64,000 nt of DNA from a bacterium (GTDB lineage: Bacteria > Moduliflexota > Moduliflexia > Moduliflexales > JAUQPW01), in the NCBI GenBank assembly GCA_030550175.1, contig JAUQPW010000005.1:23873-87872 (forward strand), given 5' to 3'. A model generated the notes under the pieces. The model did no database searches. It was given only the letters and a program-made list of their open reading frames with translations, and was not told where the DNA came from. The position numbers were made by a program, and so were the translations under genes. Positions 3,067 to 11,900 of the stretch are shown here, piece by piece. Positions within the stretch are counted from its first letter, which is position 1, and every line of letters starts with the position of its first letter.

Positions 3067-4269
3067 TTATTTCTTTCCGCCTTTATCAAAATCGGCCGGA
3101 AGTTTTACAACGGTAACGGGATCTTGATTGGTATTGGGAGCCAGTGCAGAGAGTTCGGGAATAACCAGGAGGTAGCTTCCATCGGCCATTTTACGAACTG
3201 CAATATCCGCCGGTCCGGCTAGTGTTTTGTCCGGCTGATCATAGGTCAACATCATCGGTTTTCCATCCGGCAGGAGGGTTACAATAACCGAGTTGGTATT
3301 TACAATCTCTGTATCCAGCCGGGCATTACCGGCGAAATCCAAACCATCCAGGGCTCCTAAACCGGTAACGAAGGGTGCCGGAAGCTTACCACTCTTGAAA
3401 TCTTCCACGGAGAGTTTGTACATACCTCCCTGGGCGGGATCTTTCATACCGGCAGCCACACCAACGGTATTGGTATGAATGCTCCCATCCGGGGCTACTT
3501 CCACACCATCCGGTCCACCCTCGGGCATGGCAATAAAGCTAACGGAAGCTTCTTTTCCATCCGCCAGATCATCCAGGGCCCCATGGGGAATCATATAAAC
3601 CCCTCCATTGGTTTTCACAGGAGGATCAAAGCTGGCACCGCCAATCCCGGTGTCTGCAACATATAAGTTACCATCTTTATCAAAGCCGGCTGCATTGGGA
3701 AGGGTAGCCGGAGATCCTCCATTGACCTTGGCAAAAACAGAGTCCATGCCCATTTTAATTTCGCCCAGGACTTTCCCCTCGGTATCAAACGCAACCAGTT
3801 TAGGATCCATGCGTTTGGCATCTTTAATTTCGGTCCCGTTGGCTTCGGCTATGGGAGCAGCTCCAGCACACAAAAAGATGGTACCTTTGGGGAATTTCTT
3901 GGTGGCCACAGGAAGGACCGCCATTCCCAAGGGGGCCGTCAGACCCGTGATCAGTTTATCCTTTACCATCTTTAAGGTTCCATCGGGTTGAACTTCTAGC
4001 TTACTAATGTAACCGGCCTTTTCAGTCCAGTGAAATCCTTTTTCCTTCATCCCCAACTCAGCCGCGTTAGAGACAAATACAAACTTTCCATCGGCACTAA
4101 AAATAGCCCCTTCAGGATTGTCGAAGGCCTTTAATGTCTGGATAACCTGTCCTTTAACAGGGTAAGGTGGAGGAGGAGCCGGTTTTTCCTTTTCTTCGGC
4201 CAAAGAAACAGACGTAACTAAAAGACTAACTAAAACAAGGGAGAGAATCGATTTAACGCGTACATCCAT
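3067..4269 (-). CDS. Exported SMP-30/gluconolactonase/NHL-like beta-propeller protein
   Basis: Signal peptide (SILSLVLVSLLVTSVSLA), Pro-rich linker, blade motifs NPEG, PLGM, PNAAGFDKDGNLYVADTG, PDGVEV, GPADI. AGGAGG lies 7 nt before ATG 4269. Confidence 0.7.
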   Translation of the reverse strand: MDVRVKSILSLVLVSLLVTSVSLAEEKEKPAPPPPYPVKGQVIQTLKAFDNPEGAIFSADGKFVFVSNAAELGMKEKGFHWTEKAGYISKLEVQPDGTLKMVKDKLITGLTAPLGMAVLPVATKKFPKGTIFLCAGAAPIAEANGTEIKDAKRMDPKLVAFDTEGKVLGEIKMGMDSVFAKVNGGSPATLPNAAGFDKDGNLYVADTGIGGASFDPPVKTNGGVYMIPHGALDDLADGKEASVSFIAMPEGGPDGVEVAPDGSIHTNTVGVAAGMKDPAQGGMYKLSVEDFKSGKLPAPFVTGLGALDGLDFAGNARLDTEIVNTNSVIVTLLPDGKPMMLTYDQPDKTLAGPADIAVRKMADGSYLLVIPELSALAPNTNQDPVTVVKLPADFDKGGKK

Positions 4270-4744
4270 AATCATACCTCCTTTTTGGTTAATAATTGGT
4301 TAGGCTTTTGAATCTGTCAACCCCTGTTCGAGCACCTCGAATAGGAGTGGACAAGCCCGGCTTGTAAGAATCCACATCTTCTATAGAGGCTATGTCTGAC
4401 CAGCAATTCTATATTGGGTGCTGATTTTCGTTTTGTCAATAAGAATTTGGTCACTTTTGTGAACTCTAGATTTATCCTGTAATTAGACAGGGACTTCTTG
4501 CCTAAATTGATCTACTTAGATGATCATAGAGAGATTATAATCGACTATGGTCCGAAAATCCCACTTTATCCAGAAAAGACCATACTTCTTTAAGTAAATC
4601 TGTTATCCGAATATTTATAACCCTTTAATATTAAAGAGCTTACAACTTTGCCCCTCGGCTGGTATACTTATTGCCTCTATAGGAATCAGTAACTCTCAAT
4701 GGAGATTATCCATGGATAAGCCCCGGTTTCAAGGAGGATAAGAT

Positions 4745-4987
4745 ATGGAGAACTTTCTGGATAAAATCAAGAGGGAAATCGAAGCCCTGCAAAGGGATCT
4801 GATGAAATTCAAGAGGGAAGTGAAGAAGCAGGAAGCGATTACAAAAAAAATACGAAACTCAAAACACCTAAGACCGACCGAAAAGCTACAAACTCCACGA
4901 TCACCGGAAATATGTTCCAGAGGACAGGGACAAAAACTACAGGGACCCATAACCGAAAGCGACCAATCCTTGAAGAGAGAAGAGTAA
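4745..4987 (+). CDS. Small hypothetical protein with N-terminal coiled coil
   Basis: AGGAGG RBS; heptad pattern LDKIKREIEALQRDLMKFKREVKKQE. No family recognised. Confidence 0.55.
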   Translation: MENFLDKIKREIEALQRDLMKFKREVKKQEAITKKIRNSKHLRPTEKLQTPRSPEICSRGQGQKLQGPITESDQSLKREE

Positions 4988-5149
4988 GTTTTCTTTCGCC
5001 TTAACAGAAATATTTTTATTGACAAGGTGCCTTTTAGGGAGATTAAAATAAATAAAAAAGAGGATAGGTTTTCCTGACTCCCTTATTCTTTTAAAGCTTA
5101 CATCAAAGTCCTGTTTGCCAACTTTAATAAAAAGAAAAGGAGGTAAACA

Positions 5150-5386
5150 ATGAAAACTGCCAAGTCCAAGAAACCAGATGCCCAGATAGATGTCTCCCCT
5201 ATAACCCCAGAGAAAAAGAATGAAAACGGACGGAAGACCATTACCTGCCGATATTGTAAAACAGATACCTTGATAAAAGCAAAGCCACGAAATTTTATAG
5301 ATACCTATATCTTTCCAATTATACGAATTAGTCCCTATCGCTGTTCTAATTGTAAGAGACGGGATTATTATTTCGAGCGGGCCTGA
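5150..5386 (+). CDS. Small zinc-ribbon-like protein
   Basis: AGGAGG RBS; two CxxC pairs (CRYC, CSNC); basic. Confidence 0.65.
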   Translation: MKTAKSKKPDAQIDVSPITPEKKNENGRKTITCRYCKTDTLIKAKPRNFIDTYIFPIIRISPYRCSNCKRRDYYFERA

Positions 5387-5403
5387 TTTCTTTTACCGAT
5401 AGA

Positions 5404-6576
5404 ATGATGCAAAGCCGTTTTCAGGAGTTTAAAGAAAGAGTTCTGTCCCAGAATCCAGAAGTTAACCTAGATCTCATAGAAAAAGCCTATCATTTTGTCG
5501 AGGAAAATCATAGAGGACAACACCGGGGTGAAGGGAGTGATTACGCGATTCATCCCATACGGGTAGCCTGTATCCTCTTAGAGGAGTTGAAAATAACAGA
5601 TTCAAACGTGCTCTGTGCAGCTTTACTCCACGATGTTTTAGAAGATTGTCAGGTCGATTACGCAGTTTTGGTAGAAACTTTTGGAGAACCCATTGCGGAT
5701 AGGGTGAAAATGTTAACAAAAGAAGATATCAACCGATACTCCTCCAAAGAGGAGAGAGATCGGGTCTACCTGGAAAGGATCCGGCAAGTCCCTCGAGAAA
5801 TCCAGCTCATTAAATTATCAGATCGACTGGACCATATTCGGTATTTGCATCTCTCACCTTCCCAGGAAAGGCAATTGAGATATTACCGTGAAACGTGCGA
5901 AAAGTACCTCCCTTTAGCTAAAGAAGTATCTCCTTACCTTTATGATCAGATGACGACCTGGGCGAATGGGTTCTGGAAACACCGGGCCAATACAGTCAGT
6001 TTCTGGGAAAATTTATATCAACAAAGAGAAGCTCTTTGGGATCTTGGACAGGTCGCCCCACCTTTTGCATCTTTTTTAGAATCTCCTGCTGCACCTCCCC
6101 CAGGCTCTCTGGCCGTATTGGGTTGTGGACGTGGACATGATGCAGTTTTTTTTGCTCAAAAGGGCTTCCAGGTCGTTGGGTTTGATTTTGCTCCGTCGGC
6201 AATTCAGGGGGCTGCGGAAGTAGCAAAAAAAGCCGGAGTACCCCTCAAACTGGTCCAACAGGATCTGTTTGAGTTAATTCCAAAGTATGCGCATCAATTT
6301 GATTATGTCTTAGAACATACCTGCTTTTGTGCCATTGATCCGGCCCGACGAGGAGAATATGTTCAAATTGTAAGAAATCTTTTGCGACCCGGTGGACAGT
6401 TTATTGCTCTCTTTTATACCCATGGGCAGCCGGGAGGTCCCCCTTATACCACCGATTCCGAGGAAATCCGCGCCTTGTTTTCCCCGTTTTTTGAAATTAA
6501 AACCCTGGAAGTCCCGTCTAATTCTGTTGAAAGGCGTCTGGGTAAGGAGCTTTTTAGCCTCATGGAGGTTCGTTAG
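5404..6576 (+). CDS. RelA/SpoT/Mesh1-like HD domain fused to a thiopurine/thiol S-methyltransferase (TPMT-like) domain
   Basis: N-half: HRGQHR..YAIHPIRVA, LLHDVLED, IKLSDRLDHIR. C-half: FWENLY..WDLG..P, VLGCGRGHDA, GFDF, DYVLEHTCFCAIDP..R.EY. Confidence 0.8.
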   Translation: MMQSRFQEFKERVLSQNPEVNLDLIEKAYHFVEENHRGQHRGEGSDYAIHPIRVACILLEELKITDSNVLCAALLHDVLEDCQVDYAVLVETFGEPIADRVKMLTKEDINRYSSKEERDRVYLERIRQVPREIQLIKLSDRLDHIRYLHLSPSQERQLRYYRETCEKYLPLAKEVSPYLYDQMTTWANGFWKHRANTVSFWENLYQQREALWDLGQVAPPFASFLESPAAPPPGSLAVLGCGRGHDAVFFAQKGFQVVGFDFAPSAIQGAAEVAKKAGVPLKLVQQDLFELIPKYAHQFDYVLEHTCFCAIDPARRGEYVQIVRNLLRPGGQFIALFYTHGQPGGPPYTTDSEEIRALFSPFFEIKTLEVPSNSVERRLGKELFSLMEVR

Positions 6577-6678
6577 AGAGTATAAGAGGGTGGGGGTATG
6601 AAAGTAGGGGGCGTGGGAGTGTGGAAGTGAGGAGGTGTGGGGGTATGGGAGTGTGGAGGTATGGGAGTGGGGGAGTAT
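6576..6678 (+). repeat. Degenerate G-rich octamer tandem array (about 13 units, consensus GGRRGTRT)
   Basis: Units such as GGGGGTAT, GGGAGTGT and GGAGGTAT run from the upstream TAG to the tupB ATG. Confidence 0.85.
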
Positions 6679-7375
6679 GGATTTAATTTGGGAAGGAATT
6701 CGAAAAGCCTTTGAGCTTTTAATACACCGGGACCGGGAGGTATTGGAGATTACGCTGCTTTCCCTTCGGGTCTCCGGATTGGCAACGATAGGTAGTTTGT
6801 TTCTGGGGGTTTCTATAGGGACTTTTCTGGCTTTAAGTCGCTTCCCCGGTCGCCGCTTATGGATTACCCTGATTAATACCGGAATGGGTCTACCCCCTGT
6901 TGTGGTGGGGTTGTTTGTTACGATTTTACTTTGGCGAAACGGACCTTTAGGATTCTTTCACCTGCTCTATACTCCCACGGCGATGGTGATAGCCCAGACT
7001 ATCCTTGCAACGCCTATTATGGCCGGATTAACCATAGCAGCCATCCAACATCTTAACCCCAAACTCCGTTTACAAATCCTGGCCCTTGGGGCCTCCCGCT
7101 GCCAGATGGTCTGGCTTCTCTTAAAGGAAGCCAGGCTCCCCTTACTGGCAGCTATTATGGCCAGTTTTGGAGGGGTTATTTCAGAGGTCGGGGCTTCGAT
7201 GATGGTAGGAGGGAATATCAAGGGACAAACCCGGGTGCTGACAACGGCTACGGTGTTGGAAACCAGTCGAGGTGAATTCGGTATGGCTATTGCCTTAAGT
7301 ATTCTGCTTTTTCTTTTAACCTTTAGTGTAAACCTGACCCTGACACTCCTTCAACAGCGAGAGCGACCTAAATAA
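6677..7375 (+). CDS. tupB: Tungstate/molybdate ABC transporter permease (TupB-like)
   Basis: NTGMGLPPVVVGL, LLYTPTAMVIAQ, EVGASMMVGGNI.GQTRVLTTA. Start moved to ATG 6677 because the upstream GTG lies inside the repeat array. Confidence 0.88.
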   Translation: MDLIWEGIRKAFELLIHRDREVLEITLLSLRVSGLATIGSLFLGVSIGTFLALSRFPGRRLWITLINTGMGLPPVVVGLFVTILLWRNGPLGFFHLLYTPTAMVIAQTILATPIMAGLTIAAIQHLNPKLRLQILALGASRCQMVWLLLKEARLPLLAAIMASFGGVISEVGASMMVGGNIKGQTRVLTTATVLETSRGEFGMAIALSILLFLLTFSVNLTLTLLQQRERPK

Positions 7376-7388
7376 GCCCTTAAGCGTT

Positions 7389-7436
7389 AGAAGCCAGGAG
7401 TTCCCAGGACTCCAGGCTTCTGACTCCGGAACTCCT
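7389..7436. repeat. Inverted heptamer-repeat hairpin between tupB and tupC
   Basis: AGAAGCCAGGAGT pairs with ACTCCAGGCTTCT; further GACTCC/GAACTCC units extend up to the GTG start. Confidence 0.7.
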
Positions 7437-7438
7437 CC

Positions 7439-8590
7439 GTGAAAGAAGTTATTCTAGAAGTCAGAAATCTACAAGTTCTGGGTGATAAGCAAACGATTCT
7501 GGATGTTCCCAAACTCCAGGTAGAGATGGGAGAAACCCTGGCTTTTCTCGGGCCTAATGGAGCCGGGAAAACGACTCTGCTTCAGGTTCTGGCCTTCCTC
7601 CAATCTCCCCATGAAGGAACCGTCTTCTTTAAAGGTCTGCCGGTTGATTATAAAAAGAATCTTCTCCCATTACGACGATCTCTGGCAGTCGTTTTTCAAG
7701 AGCCACTTTTATTCGATACCACCGTCTTCGAAAATGTCGCTTCCGGCTTGAAACTAAGGAGAGCCTCCCGGCAGGAGATCTACGAAAAGGTTTTTATATG
7801 GCTGGAACGATTGGGAATCTCCCATTTAGCGAATCGCTCGGCTAGAACCCTGTCAGGCGGCGAAGCCCAACGAACCAGCCTGGCGCGCGCCTTTGTCCTA
7901 AATCCCCAAATCCTCTTCCTGGATGAACCCTTTGCAGCTTTAGATTCTCCTTCCCGTGAAGCTCTTATCGAAGATATCGAACACATCCTCCGCGAAACCC
8001 ATACCACCACGATCCTGGTAACCCATGATCGCTCCGAAGTCCTCAGACTGGCAGATCGGGTTGCAATCATGGACCGCGGGAAAATCCTCCAGATGGGTAG
8101 AACCGATGAGGTCTTCAATCATCCCATCAATGAAACCGTAGCTGCTTTCGTAGGTATCGAAACGGTTCTACCCGGCAAAGTCGTAGAGGGAAGAGAAGGA
8201 ACTTTTCTGGTGAAGATTTCAGAAGGCCACACCATTGAAACTATCGGCAACCTTCGGGTCGGGGGAGATGTTCTGGTCTGTTTGAGGCCTGAACAGGTTA
8301 CGCTGGAGACCCTGGAAAGAGACCCGGGAACCTGCAGATCCGAAGGTAGGGAGAAGAAAGATTCTATACTTCTTCGGCCAGAAAAAATCACTTCCAGCGC
8401 CAGAAACCGGATAAAAGGGCGTATCCTGAGGGTAGTACCCCAAGGCTTGTATTATAAAGTAATTTTGGATTGTGGATTTCCGTTAACCTCGTTTGTGACC
8501 AAACATTCCGTGGAAGCACTAAACTTGAAGGAAGGACGGTCTATCCTGGCTACTTTTAAAGCGACGGCAGTCCACATTATCCCGAAATAA
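7439..8590 (+). CDS. tupC: Tungstate/molybdate ABC ATPase with C-terminal TOBE domains (TupC-like)
   Basis: Walker A GPNGAGKT, signature LSGGEAQR, Walker B LFLDEPF, H-loop VTHD, TOBE region SSARN..F.ATAVH. Confidence 0.88.
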   Translation: MKEVILEVRNLQVLGDKQTILDVPKLQVEMGETLAFLGPNGAGKTTLLQVLAFLQSPHEGTVFFKGLPVDYKKNLLPLRRSLAVVFQEPLLFDTTVFENVASGLKLRRASRQEIYEKVFIWLERLGISHLANRSARTLSGGEAQRTSLARAFVLNPQILFLDEPFAALDSPSREALIEDIEHILRETHTTTILVTHDRSEVLRLADRVAIMDRGKILQMGRTDEVFNHPINETVAAFVGIETVLPGKVVEGREGTFLVKISEGHTIETIGNLRVGGDVLVCLRPEQVTLETLERDPGTCRSEGREKKDSILLRPEKITSSARNRIKGRILRVVPQGLYYKVILDCGFPLTSFVTKHSVEALNLKEGRSILATFKATAVHIIPK

Positions 8591-8637
8591 CACCATTTCT
8601 ACGTTAAAACATCGCCTGCCTCACCCCCCCTTTCCCA

Positions 8638-8799
8638 TAGGTGCCAGGATAAGAAAGTTAGCCCCAGCAGGGCAACCCGTTTAACAGGCCGCTCCTCCGG
8701 AGCCTGAAGAAAATTCTGAATGACTGACTCCCCCAACTTGCATGGGGGGCTACCAACTGTTCGCCCCTGACAGGGCTTTTCAGCTTAACCTGGCGCCTA
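8638..8799 (+). mobile_element. MITE family A, copy 1 (158 bp plus TA flanks)
   Basis: TA|GGTGCCAGGATAAG ... CTTAACCTGGCGCC|TA; interior homologous to copies at 16720, 36614 and 62560. Confidence 0.85.
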
Positions 8800-8809
8800 T
8801 GCTCCCCTT

Positions 8810-8837
8810 CCCCTCTCCTGAAGCTTCTGGAGAGGGG
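8810..8837. repeat. CCCCTCTCC/GGAGAGGGG palindromic repeat (AAGCTT loop)
   Basis: 9-bp perfect stem; same family as hairpins at 16679, 16894, 24761, 27511, 36778 and 57059. Confidence 0.8.
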
Positions 8838-8968
8838 AGATGAGGGGGTGAGGCGGGGAACAAGGGGGTGAGGGAAGAATGGGAATCCAGGCCATTCCTG
8901 AGTCCCCCCTTCTTCCCAACTCGGGAAAGGGGTTAGGTTAGAAAAAACCTGCCCCCCTGCTATACGAT

Positions 8969-11900
8969 TTATCCATGACCTTCCCAGATTGCCAGGGTTT
9001 CTTCCTGCAGGGATCGAACCTTGTCCACCATGTCCCTCAGCCTCTGATTATCAGGTTCGTACTGAAGGGCATTCTGATAGATGTGCATCGCTTCTCGATC
9101 TATGCGTTGATGTTTCAGACAACTTCGACTTAAGATCTGATAAACAAGTTTATTACGATGGCCCAGACGATACAGGCGCTTACAGATGGTCACCATCGCC
9201 TGCTCTTTGCTTAGATGATTTTCCCATATCTTATATTCTGATTCATCGGCTTTTAAATAAGCCTCCAGCAAAATGCTGAGAAGTTCCACATTATCAGGTT
9301 GAAATTCCAATGCCCTTTCATAGGCCCAGATGGCTCGTGGACCAGTCATTCTTCTCTGAAGGTAATAGTTAGCCAGAAGTAAGGCAGGGCCTCGCAGTTC
9401 TGGATCCAGGGAAAGGGCTTTATGATGGACCCAGAAAGCCCTGGCGTGAAAACGACCTGTTTTAAGATAAAGGGCACTTAACCGGGGAAAAATCCACACT
9501 TTCTTGGGATTCTTGTTCAGGAGTCGCTCATAAACCCGGATGACCTTGTCCCAGGCTCCCAAAGAGGCATAGAAGCGAATTTTAAGGCTCGAAGGTCTTA
9601 AGGAAAGAAGTATTCGGGTTGTCCCTAAAGCATTCCAGCACTCCATCAGCTTATTTCGAGATCGCTCTTTCCATTCGGGAATTTTGCGAATCTTCCGGAA
9701 CTCCCGAATAGCTTTACGGATTTTTCCCTGTTCCATATATAACAATCCCAACTGATAATGTGCAGCCGGAGCCTGGCCATCTTCTGTTGTCAGAAAGCGA
9801 TAGACAACTTCCAGTTTATTGAGGATAGTATCCAAGGTATGGGAGGGTACATCCCCTTTCCCGGAAGTCGATGGGGAGTTTTTACTGAACTTATAAGCAA
9901 GGGTTAGATATTCCCTGGCAAGGAGGGGTTTTCCCTTTGCCCAGAACAGGTCTGCTAACTTCAAGTAAAGATCCGTAAAAGAAGGATCTATGGGGATAAT
10001 CTCATGGAGGAAATCAATCCCCATAGCCAAAGTATTTGTTTTCTCACAGGCCTTTAGAAAAAGAGACAAAAATCTGAAATGGTCGGGATTTTCCGGAAGA
10101 AGTACCCAGGCCTTAAGGAGGATGGCATTTAACAGGGTCCGATTATAAGGATCTATTTTCAGCGCGTTTTCAAAAACCCAGAGGGCCCGCTCGCTGATCT
10201 TAAAGTTTCTCAGGTAACGGTAAGAGACCGGAATTATGGCCTCCGGATGGGTAAAGCCTAGAGATAAGGCACGGTCATAAACCTTTGCGGCTTCCTCATC
10301 CTGTCTTCCCATTTTGATATAAAGATCTGCCAGTAGGGGATAAATCCAAAGCTTATCCATCTGTTGGGAGTCCGTGGAAAGATCCTTCTCCAGCATCCTT
10401 TGGTAAATCTCGGCAGCTTTAGCATATCGGCCCAGAGTTTTATAAAAAGCTGCCTCCAGAACTTTGCTCTGGGTAAGTGAATCGAAAGATTTCTTCCTTC
10501 TCAAGATGAGGACAAAGAGAAGGCTTACCAGGATTCCCAGGCCTATGGTGGCATACCGAATCAGATTTCTTCGATATATTTCTTCATCTTTGGCTCTGCG
10601 CATCTGGTGTTCCTGTTGAGCGCGCAGAAGTTGACGTTCTCGTTGCTGATCTTCTTCCCAATATTGAAGGCCGGTTACTACCTCCTGGAGCTTTTGCAAG
10701 GTCTCAGGGTCGGCAGGATCTATCTCCAGGGCTTTTAAGAAGTAAGTTTTCGCGGCATCCCAATCCCATTCTTTTAGCTTTTCTTCCCCTAGACGCAGCA
10801 AAGGCTGGATTTGTTCTTGTTTTTGCCGGGTTATGAAAGAAACGGTCTGGTTCAGCTTTCTACGGGCATCTGAATGATAAGGATCTGCTTCCAGGGCTTT
10901 CTCAAAGAGTTTCCCGGCTTCTGTCCAGTCTTGCCGATCCATGGCAAGAGAGCCCCGGGCATAATAGAGGTTTGCCTGGAGCCTCTGGATTTGAAGGGTA
11001 GAATCGGGAATCGGGAATCGGGAATTTTCCAACTCAGATAGAGCCTGGCTAAAGTAGATAATGGCCTGGTCCCAGTTTTGTTGTTGAAGCTGGGCCTGCC
11101 CCTCCTGATGATTTTGATTTATAATGGCCTGTTGAAGCCGGCGCCGTGCTTCTTCGGTATCCTTCTCCTGAAGGGCCAACACAAAACTTTCCCTAGCTCG
11201 TGCCCATTGTTCCCGGCTAACCTGCTCGAGTCCTGTCTGGTACCATTGGGTATATCGGACCTCTCTCAAGTGGGTACGGGCTTCTTCGGTATCCAAAAAG
11301 CCCAAAGCCAGGGTAAAGCTGGCTCCTGCCTGGGACCACAAGCCCCGATCTGCCTGACTAAGGCCAGCTTCGTACCACTTATGATAACTGGCTTCCTGAA
11401 GTCCTTTTCGAGACTCTTCGGTATCCAGGGTACTTAAGGCAAGATTAAAATTTTCTATGGCATCGTCCCATCGTTTTTGTTTCATCCGCTCCATACCCAA
11501 ATCATACCATCGGTGATGGATCGCTTCCTTAAGCTTTTCTTTGACTTCGTCAACCGGTTTCACTTCCAAAGCCCGCTTTAAATTCTCAATAGCACTCTCC
11601 CATTTCCTTTCGGCCATCCGCATAAGGCCAAGCTTATACCATTTTTGAAAAATACTTTCAGGGTCTACGTTGGTCTTCTCCACCTTATCGGACTTTGCTT
11701 TATCCATTTCCTCCACTTTAGAGGGGGATGGAGGGGAGATTATTTCATCTTTAGGGGGTGGGGTTGCTTGGTCTTTGTTTTTCTCCTCCGGTTCTGTTTT
11801 CGGATTCTGTAAGCCTGGGGTGAGTTCGGTTGAATCAGAGGATCGACCCCTGATCTCTACTTTTTTACCGGGAGAATGTTGGGTGGAAGTCAGAGGTTTT

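Follow-up and report, generated by a model that had tools for sequence, protein, structure and literature searches.

A Rel/SpoT-type HD hydrolase domain fused to a halide/thiol-type methyltransferase in an uncultured hot-spring lineage

A 64,000-nucleotide stretch of bacterial contig JAUQPW010000005.1 (GenBank assembly GCA_030550175.1, positions 23,873 to 87,872), which we refer to throughout as the window, carries a single gene that joins a hydrolase domain of the Rel/SpoT type to an S-adenosylmethionine (SAM)-dependent methyltransferase of the TPMT family (Table 1). Pfam assigns the N-terminal half of the 390-amino-acid (aa) product to HD_4 (E 5.2e-19, 69 bits against a cutoff of 27.2) and the C-terminal half to TPMT (E 2e-31, 109.8 bits against a cutoff of 26), with generic class I methyltransferase models overlapping the latter. 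The NCBIfam RelA/SpoT model TIGR00691 aligns to the same residues as HD_4 (8e-29) through its positions 1–146, the part of the model that represents the hydrolase domain of the long RelA/SpoT homologues (RSH). The fusion of an HD domain to a TPMT-family methyltransferase, first proposed from the letters of the DNA alone, is thus borne out by two models that both score above cutoff within one open reading frame (ORF). The architecture corresponds to neither of the familiar hydrolase classes. Unlike the small alarmone hydrolases (SAHs), which are single-domain enzymes, this protein carries a catalytic methyltransferase domain of 195 residues C-terminal to its HD domain, and unlike the long Rel and SpoT enzymes it has no synthetase (RelA_SpoT), TGS or ACT domain that Pfam can find in its 390 residues.

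Table 1. Features of the fusion gene and its immediate surroundings, in window coordinates
Feature	Coordinates	Strand	Basis
Zinc-ribbon ORF, Cys4 (CxxC...CxxC), 78 aa	5150..5386	+	17 nt before fusion start; strong AAGGAGG ribosome-binding site
Stretch covered by metatranscriptome, two contigs (5068-5271, 5247-5511), no mismatches	5068..5511	+	hot-spring RNA
Fusion gene, 390 aa, HD_4 hydrolase plus TPMT/HOL-type SAM methyltransferase	5404..6576	+	ATG-started ORF, Pfam, NCBIfam
Rel/SpoT-type HD_4 domain, residues 28-173	5485..5922	+	Pfam, NCBIfam, motif alignment
Codon CAT, His144 at the HD6 position	5833..5835	+	sequence, orthologue alignments
Domain junction, residues ~190-198	5971..5997	+	ends and starts of stand-alone homologues; AF2 pLDDT
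TPMT/HOL-type class I SAM methyltransferase domain, residues 199-376	5998..6531	+	Pfam, orthologue and 3LCC alignments
G-rich tandem array, unit ~GTGGGAGT, 8.5 copies	6586..6681	+	fusion-permease spacer
ABC permease, TupB/ModB-like, 232 aa, likely start ATG 6677 (MDLIWEG...)	6677..7375	+	NF038017 268 bits; orthologues
ABC ATPase with C-terminal TOBE domain	7439..8590	+	tungstate WtpC 301 bits against cutoff 440, then ModC/CysA types

Structure prediction points to the same two folds. An AlphaFold2 (AF2) model has a mean predicted local distance difference test (pLDDT) score of 74.9, with values of 80–95 in the HD half, 60–80 in the methyltransferase half and below 50 for residues 196–215; its input was limited to six sequences, a deeper alignment having been dropped when MAFFT placed stand-alone HD proteins onto the methyltransferase half. 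When this model was used as a Foldseek query, it retrieved halide methyltransferases (HMTs; 9H04, 3LCC, 6MRO and 8AJP) together with Rel and Mesh1 hydrolases (7OHG, 3NQW and 3NR1).

The gene recurs well beyond the single contig on which it was found. About 11 independently assembled sequences, 71–90% identical, share the 390-aa frame with zero insertions or deletions (indels). A search of 5.8 billion proteins returned, in addition to the window's own group, five further 90%-identity clusters of the 390-aa architecture, all metagenomic, and the six clusters align over 390 columns without a gap. In all six the junction is kept, the two domains lying in one frame with essentially no linker between them. 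In three hot-spring metagenome runs, all from one study, contigs match positions 4300–8699 of the window identically, and none of them shows the stop or frameshift between the domains that would have undone the original prediction. Pairwise dN/dS ratios (NG86 method) are 0.12–0.22 for the HD half and 0.08–0.15 for the methyltransferase half, the more distant orthologue pairs being mostly saturated in dS, and both halves are under purifying selection.

The fusion is, at the same time, extremely rare and confined to one small uncultured hot-spring lineage. A HMMER search over 1.84 billion representatives at 50% identity gave 28,323 matches, of which exactly one was full length, and this was the representative of the present fusion family; the other top matches listed each cover one half only. 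Even the weakest match listed scored 129 bits, so any other fusion family modestly similar in each half would have appeared among them; very remote analogous fusions lie outside this reach. A pattern scan of one genome per GTDB species found no further carrier of the fusion, returning only stand-alone methyltransferases from Melainabacteria and Obscuribacterales, and the same kind of scan of JGI metagenome contigs found one already-known contig and no new carrier. Six sequences make up the window's own 90% cluster, among them GenBank HWP45659.1 from a metagenome-assembled genome (MAG) labelled Candidatus Limnocylindrales bacterium (Chloroflexota), where the record is named simply "HD domain-containing protein"; the JGI copies are annotated "SAM-dependent methyltransferase". 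Nowhere do the texts of the RSH superfamily surveys searched use the word "methyltransferase", and a full-text literature search for a fusion of a small alarmone hydrolase with a methyltransferase returned nothing relevant. The suspicion that this is an undescribed architecture therefore holds up, since public annotations name one domain only, and a single full-length cluster in 1.84e9 representatives is far from a common and already annotated fusion.

The N-terminal half has the hallmarks of an alarmone hydrolase. All the SpoT/Mesh1 motifs first read in it are present, namely H36..Q39.R41, H50-P51, L75-H76-D77..E80-D81 and K137..D140-R141. We aligned the window's HD half with 13 stand-alone SAHs and human MESH1, whose reference sequence was checked to be identical to 3NR1; R41 (HD1), H50 (HD2), H76-D77 (HD3), E80-D81 (HD4) and K137 and D140 (HD5, with R141 next) are invariant across this set. 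In characterized enzymes, Mn2+ is bound by HD2, HD3 and HD5, HD4 forms the catalytic diad, and the base is held by the HD1 Arg and the HD6 Asn (PMC9293644). The consensus of the fusion family holds all six Rel/SpoT hydrolase motifs (R41, H50, H76-D77, E80-D81, D140-R141 and N144), and in this six-motif consensus and in its HD_4 fold it resembles both the SAHs (Mesh1/MESH1, RelH, XccSAH and the phage and PaSpo/PbcSpo enzymes) and the long Rel/SpoT proteins. The window copy itself has the full 2H2D metal site (H50, H76-D77 and D140) and the ED diad E80-D81. Of the base-contacting pair it has R41, with the HD6 Asn replaced by His144, a second respect in which the window's protein departs from the SAHs.

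A further position bears on the chemistry to be expected. Asp91 of MESH1, which is also present in the NADPH-hydrolysing SAH of Xanthomonas, takes the place of the beta-phosphate at the second metal site and permits action on monophosphate esters, whereas SpoT, which has no equivalent of Asp91, favours a 3'-diphosphate (PMC11554896). The residue of the window protein that aligns with MESH1 Asp91 is K106, within an "LTK" that may be compared with the "VTK" of Rel, so that the fusion, unlike MESH1, has Lys rather than Asp at the site that determines phosphatase activity. This lysine makes the family resemble the Rel/SpoT pyrophosphohydrolases rather than phosphatases of the MESH1 type. The best solved-structure matches to the N-terminal half are the Rel hydrolase domains of Bacillus subtilis, Staphylococcus aureus, Mycobacterium tuberculosis and Thermus thermophilus (1e-19 to 1e-22), followed by Mesh1 structures (1e-15 to 1e-12) and, after these, bacterial small alarmone hydrolases. 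Its nearest stand-alone relatives are uncharacterised HD proteins of 180–215 aa that are 40–48% identical, and a long-RSH fragment from Acidobacteriota is about as close.

In the sub-lineage to which the window belongs, residues of the hydrolase site are being replaced. The original prediction had drawn attention to a His in place of the usual Asn of DRxxN; that His is indeed residue 144 of the window protein, but it is not a family trait, for position 144 is Asn in the other orthologues (P0001–P0005, which read DRLDN) and in the other 14 sequences of the hydrolase alignment. The window has seven derived substitutions, N144H among them, in common with P0310/P0308 (HWP45659.1, with its DNA in locus L019), on which grounds we regard the two as sister lineages. 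The latter additionally has H76Q, with loss of a metal ligand, and P51L. In the Corynebacterium glutamicum enzyme RelH, N126D and N126L, which alter the corresponding HD6 residue, are among the inactive mutants (PMC9293644), and N144H is a lineage-specific and probably disabling change in the window's HD domain.

This change has not been followed by free decay. Within the 90% cluster, the HD half differs at 28–31 amino acids and the methyltransferase half at 8–11, so that the former changes about three times faster, and the methyltransferase motifs are unaltered in all orthologue sequences. The dN/dS of the HD domain is 0.22 by NG86 and 0.37 by maximum likelihood (ML) between the window and L019, which both have His144, and 0.20 (NG86) and 0.36 (ML) between the canonical pair L020 and L003, a comparison whose power is limited by the small divergence since the substitution (dS 0.2–0.35). 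The HD domain is constrained while its classical catalytic residues get replaced. Escherichia coli RelA likewise retains an inactive HD domain, and, by analogy only, the window's sub-lineage may be a comparable case of an RSH hydrolase domain kept after a catalytic residue was lost. The partner here is a methyltransferase, in contrast to the synthetase and ribosome-binding domains of RelA, and most orthologues of the fusion are still canonical.

The C-terminal half belongs, judged by its closest relatives, to the halide/thiol (HOL/HMT/TMT) branch of the TPMT family. The nearest solved structures are 9H0G and 9H0D ("thiol methyltransferase 1"), 3LCC, 9H04 and 8AJP, with E values of 1e-21 to 1e-23, whereas mammalian TPMT structures reach only 1e-6 to 1e-7. 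The reading of this half as TPMT-type therefore stands at the level of the family, but the bacterial selenium/tellurium methyltransferases to which the original prediction had pointed are not its orthologues. The half scores 61.8 bits against the equivalog model TIGR03840 of the bacterial Tpm enzymes, whose cutoff is 223.2, and 53.7 bits against PRK13255, whose cutoff is 213, and these NCBIfam cutoffs rule such an assignment out; what it has in common with Tpm is the Pfam family PF05724.

With the HMTs, by contrast, it has in common the TPMT-family Rossmann fold, the W...PWD motif, the GxGxG SAM loop, D261 and D287 and a tyrosine (Tyr338) at the position of Tyr172 of the Arabidopsis thaliana enzyme (AtHMT), at about 27–29% identity (A. 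thaliana HOL1/HMT, 3LCC; Tulasnella calospora, 9H04; 9H0G/9H0D; Paraburkholderia xenovorans, 8AJP). Invariant in the six orthologues are W201, W212-D213, G240-C-G-R-G244 (the SAM loop), D261, D287 and E304-H-T-C-F-C309. In the alignment to 3LCC, H305 corresponds to AtHMT Tyr139, T306 to Val140, C309 to Cys143 and Y338 to Tyr172, of which we take Tyr139 and Tyr172 to be active-site residues. Of these AtHMT (EC 2.1.1.165) positions the fusion keeps Cys143 and Tyr172, whereas Tyr139 is replaced by His305 and Val140 by Thr306; it also has one more cysteine, Cys307. The numbering of AtHMT Val140 is confirmed in the literature, in which HMTs and thiol methyltransferases (TMTs) are described as methylating halides, HS- and SCN-, their natural role being unsettled (PMC8453949).

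The string LEHTCFCAI that contains these residues is the consensus of an entire uncharacterised methyltransferase subclade, whose members, from cyanobacteria, Chloroflexota, Poribacteria and Melainabacteria, are at most 58% identical to the window's C-terminal half. Other N-terminal partners of this subclade are a NUDIX hydrolase (P0125) and the dephospho-CoA kinase CoaE (P0050 and P0071; L010, positions 316–1563). The commonest of these other partners is an unassigned N-terminal domain of about 115 aa (MDLRSxKLxL...RDLEG...; P0083, P0098, P0100 and P0151). All three kinds of fusion appear to be undescribed. Among stand-alone members, one (L007) has a NUDIX gene 1 kb away, and another, in a Poribacteria MAG (L018, positions 4001–5044), is followed after 7 nt by a gene for holo-ACP synthase (ACPS), with a YjeF-type NAD(P)HX repair gene further downstream; the other stand-alone contexts are unrelated.

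The surroundings of the gene are conserved on its 3' side. In all six fusion loci available (the window, L001, L003/L004, L005, L019 and L020/L021), the genes downstream of the fusion, on its own strand, encode an ATP-binding cassette (ABC) permease and then an ABC ATPase with a TOBE domain, with a gene for a 2-hydroxyacid dehydrogenase between the two in L001, whereas the upstream regions of L001, L003 and L005 are dissimilar. After NF038017, the next model to match the permease is TupB, at 170 bits against a cutoff of 320. The mechanical ORF call starts the permease at a GTG at 6635 (6635–7375), inside a G-rich repeat, and the orthologues in L001, L003 and L005 are called at 232 aa; the GTG is probably the wrong start, and the ATG at 6677 fits. 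The repeat, which occupies the spacer between fusion and permease, contains many GGAG and GGAGG words that resemble Shine–Dalgarno sequences, and the orthologous spacers hold such arrays of about 20 to 100 nt. Read depth over the array is about fivefold higher, showing that similar arrays occur elsewhere in the community, and the array is not an obvious hairpin, as no complementary arm was seen.

Upstream, most loci have a zinc-ribbon ORF of 76–78 aa that ends 17 nt 5' of the fusion; only three clusters of it occur in the 5.8e9 proteins, all in fusion-bearing lineages. JGI labels this ORF "RNA polymerase subunit RPC12/RpoP". One hot-spring RNA contig (5247–5511) runs across the zinc-ribbon ORF into the 5' end of the fusion gene, which places both on one RNA in situ. 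In L001, four inserted genes displace the zinc-ribbon ORF 3.4 kb from the fusion; they lie on the minus strand (positions 4639–7656 of that locus), include proteins of the MbnB/TglH/ChrH family and with a SCO6045_C domain, and may form a peptide-modification cassette.

Further from the fusion, the window's neighbours are prs, rplY, pth, a secreted beta-propeller protein and the ABC importer. The secreted protein (3067–4275, minus strand, 402 aa) has a signal peptide, weak similarity to the ScyD/ScyE beta-propellers and no Pfam match, and it is kept beside the locus in L001, L003, L019 and L020. Between it and the zinc-ribbon ORF lies an ORF of 80 aa (4745–4987), Lys/Glu-rich and probably coiled-coil, with no family match, which is conserved as a 67-aa ORF in L003, L019 and L020. 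At 8643–8700 read depth again rises about fivefold and many short unrelated contigs match, and one contig per run has a 1-nt G insertion after 8669. Rfam gave no matches over the whole window, and a promoter and terminator scan of 4276–8990 found nothing exceeding the shuffled background. We also considered a toxSAS–SAH toxin–antitoxin or defence module and rejected it: near the fusion there is no alarmone synthetase gene and no phage or defence context, the PADLOC matches being generic methyltransferase and ABC ones.

Taken as a whole, these observations fit best, with a probability that we put at about 0.55, a protein that was ancestrally a bifunctional hydrolase–methyltransferase with an oxyanion-linked role and whose hydrolase has been weakened in the window's lineage. 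The fusion would have arisen once, in a narrow uncultured hot-spring lineage, by the direct joining of an HD domain (about residues 20–190) to a methyltransferase (about residues 197–390), and the resulting protein would have had both activities. Because the six motifs and the Rel-type lysine are kept, the ancestral HD half was most likely an Mn2+-dependent 3'-pyrophosphohydrolase of (p)ppGpp or (p)ppApp. The C-terminal half would transfer the methyl group of SAM to a small soft nucleophile such as HS-, a halide or SCN-, or to a small thiol or chalcogenide, and, to judge from the rates and motifs, methylation is the more tightly conserved of the two activities. In the window, the HD half is probably a weakened or inactive hydrolase, since its base-contacting HD6 Asn has become His and its sister also lacks a metal-ligand His, and selection would have kept it in a structural or nucleotide-binding role. 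The conserved linkage to a TupB/WtpC-like importer suggests a role tied to oxyanion uptake in sulfidic, halide-rich hot-spring water. Every substrate in this account, as well as any coupling between the halves, is something that we infer.

Several observations weigh against this account. On the side of the enzyme, His305 stands at the position of Tyr139 and the subclade is uncharacterised, so the methyl acceptor could be quite different from halides or HS-. Histidine sometimes substitutes for asparagine in hydrogen bonding, and the window's HD domain may be active or have an altered base preference. The geometry between the domains in the AF2 model is unreliable, because pLDDT falls below 50 at residues 196–215, and a functional link between the halves gains no independent support from gene neighbourhoods, because adjacent stand-alone SAH and methyltransferase genes, the pattern expected of a Rosetta stone fusion, were not found in the loci of the closest relatives of either half. 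On the side of the locus, no gene for the importer's substrate-binding protein was found among the window ORFs scanned, transcription across the gap between fusion and permease was not seen in the metatranscriptome contigs, and the conserved gene order is known only within one narrow lineage, where synteny is to be expected anyway.

The best-placed alternative, which we nevertheless consider unlikely, takes the HD domain to be an alarmone-sensing pseudo-hydrolase whose main task would be to bind (p)ppGpp or (p)ppApp and to regulate the methyltransferase allosterically, hydrolysis being dispensable, so that SAM spending or anion methylation would track the stringent state. The catalytic residues have been lost in two sister lineages, yet the domain keeps a dN/dS of about 0.2 and has never been deleted, and the tight junction without a linker would also suit such control. 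Most orthologues, however, retain every catalytic residue, which speaks for genuine hydrolysis within the family, and the dN/dS test is low-powered at a dS of 0.2–0.35. Its most specific form, in which an SAH domain (a pseudo-enzyme in some lineages) was recruited as a built-in alarmone sensor that gates the methyltransferase and lets the stringent response switch the oxyanion-linked methylation or volatilisation of sulfur, selenium or halides, is a speculative proposal with rather low odds; if true, this would be the first SAH domain to serve as a regulatory module of an unrelated enzyme.

The two halves might instead act in turn on one thiol-bearing nucleotide or cofactor, as a two-step house-cleaning or repair enzyme that trims a 3'-(pyro)phosphate and S-methylates the thiol, with thio-nucleotides from tRNA turnover or derivatives of CoA, dephospho-CoA or pantetheine as candidate substrates. 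The human pair NUDT15 and TPMT offers a parallel. The His-containing methyltransferase clade is also joined to NUDIX and CoaE, which is a weak hint in this direction, as are the NUDIX gene near one stand-alone member and the holo-ACP synthase gene directly after another; together, the HD, NUDIX and CoaE fusions may indicate that the methyl acceptor is a nucleotide or cofactor with a thiol. We nonetheless think such a role improbable: NUDIX and CoaE fusions are rare and most stand-alone contexts are unrelated, the closest relatives of known structure have pockets for small anions, from K106 one would expect a pyrophosphohydrolase and not a 3'-phosphatase, and the relatives' loci contained no split pair of HD and methyltransferase genes.

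Less promising still is an accessory role in sulfur or oxyanion assimilation, with the HD domain as a phosphatase of 3'-phosphoadenosine 5'-phosphosulfate (PAPS) and 3'-phosphoadenosine 5'-phosphate (PAP), or of NADPH, and the methyltransferase removing excess HS- or HSe- derived from imported oxyanions. PAPS phosphatase activity of MESH1 has recently been reported (PMC12934728), and PDB entry 9CHY is a MESH1–PAPS complex; an oxyanion ABC importer adjoins the fusion in all lineages, and methylation of HS- is within the repertoire of HMTs and TMTs. The phosphatase-determinant Asp of MESH1 and XccSAH is nevertheless Lys in the fusion, the transporter scores nearest to tungstate and molybdate types rather than sulfate ones, and no sulfate-assimilation genes were found nearby among the window ORFs scanned, all of which makes this role very unlikely. 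One might also suspect an artefact, whether a misassembly or an overlooked stop or frameshift, or else a chance read-through between two neighbouring genes that carries no selective significance, given that both partners are widespread as stand-alone genes of about 200 aa, but such an origin is effectively refuted by the one indel-free frame and conserved junction in sequences from different samples and assemblers, by the purifying selection on both halves and by the recovery of the window in three runs.

What is new here is the combination of two known enzyme kinds in one protein. SAHs have been treated as single-domain enzymes, and their roles beyond toxin neutralisation are still emerging, as with the action of MESH1 on NADPH and PAPS and the promiscuity of XccSAH. 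Confinement to one small uncultured hot-spring lineage limits the practical reach of the fusion. The fusion gives two poorly understood enzyme classes one shared, testable context, and its orthologues form a natural variant series in which the hydrolase site is intact (Asn144), altered (His144) or missing a metal ligand (Gln76), a series well suited to the question of whether the HD domain serves as catalyst or as sensor.

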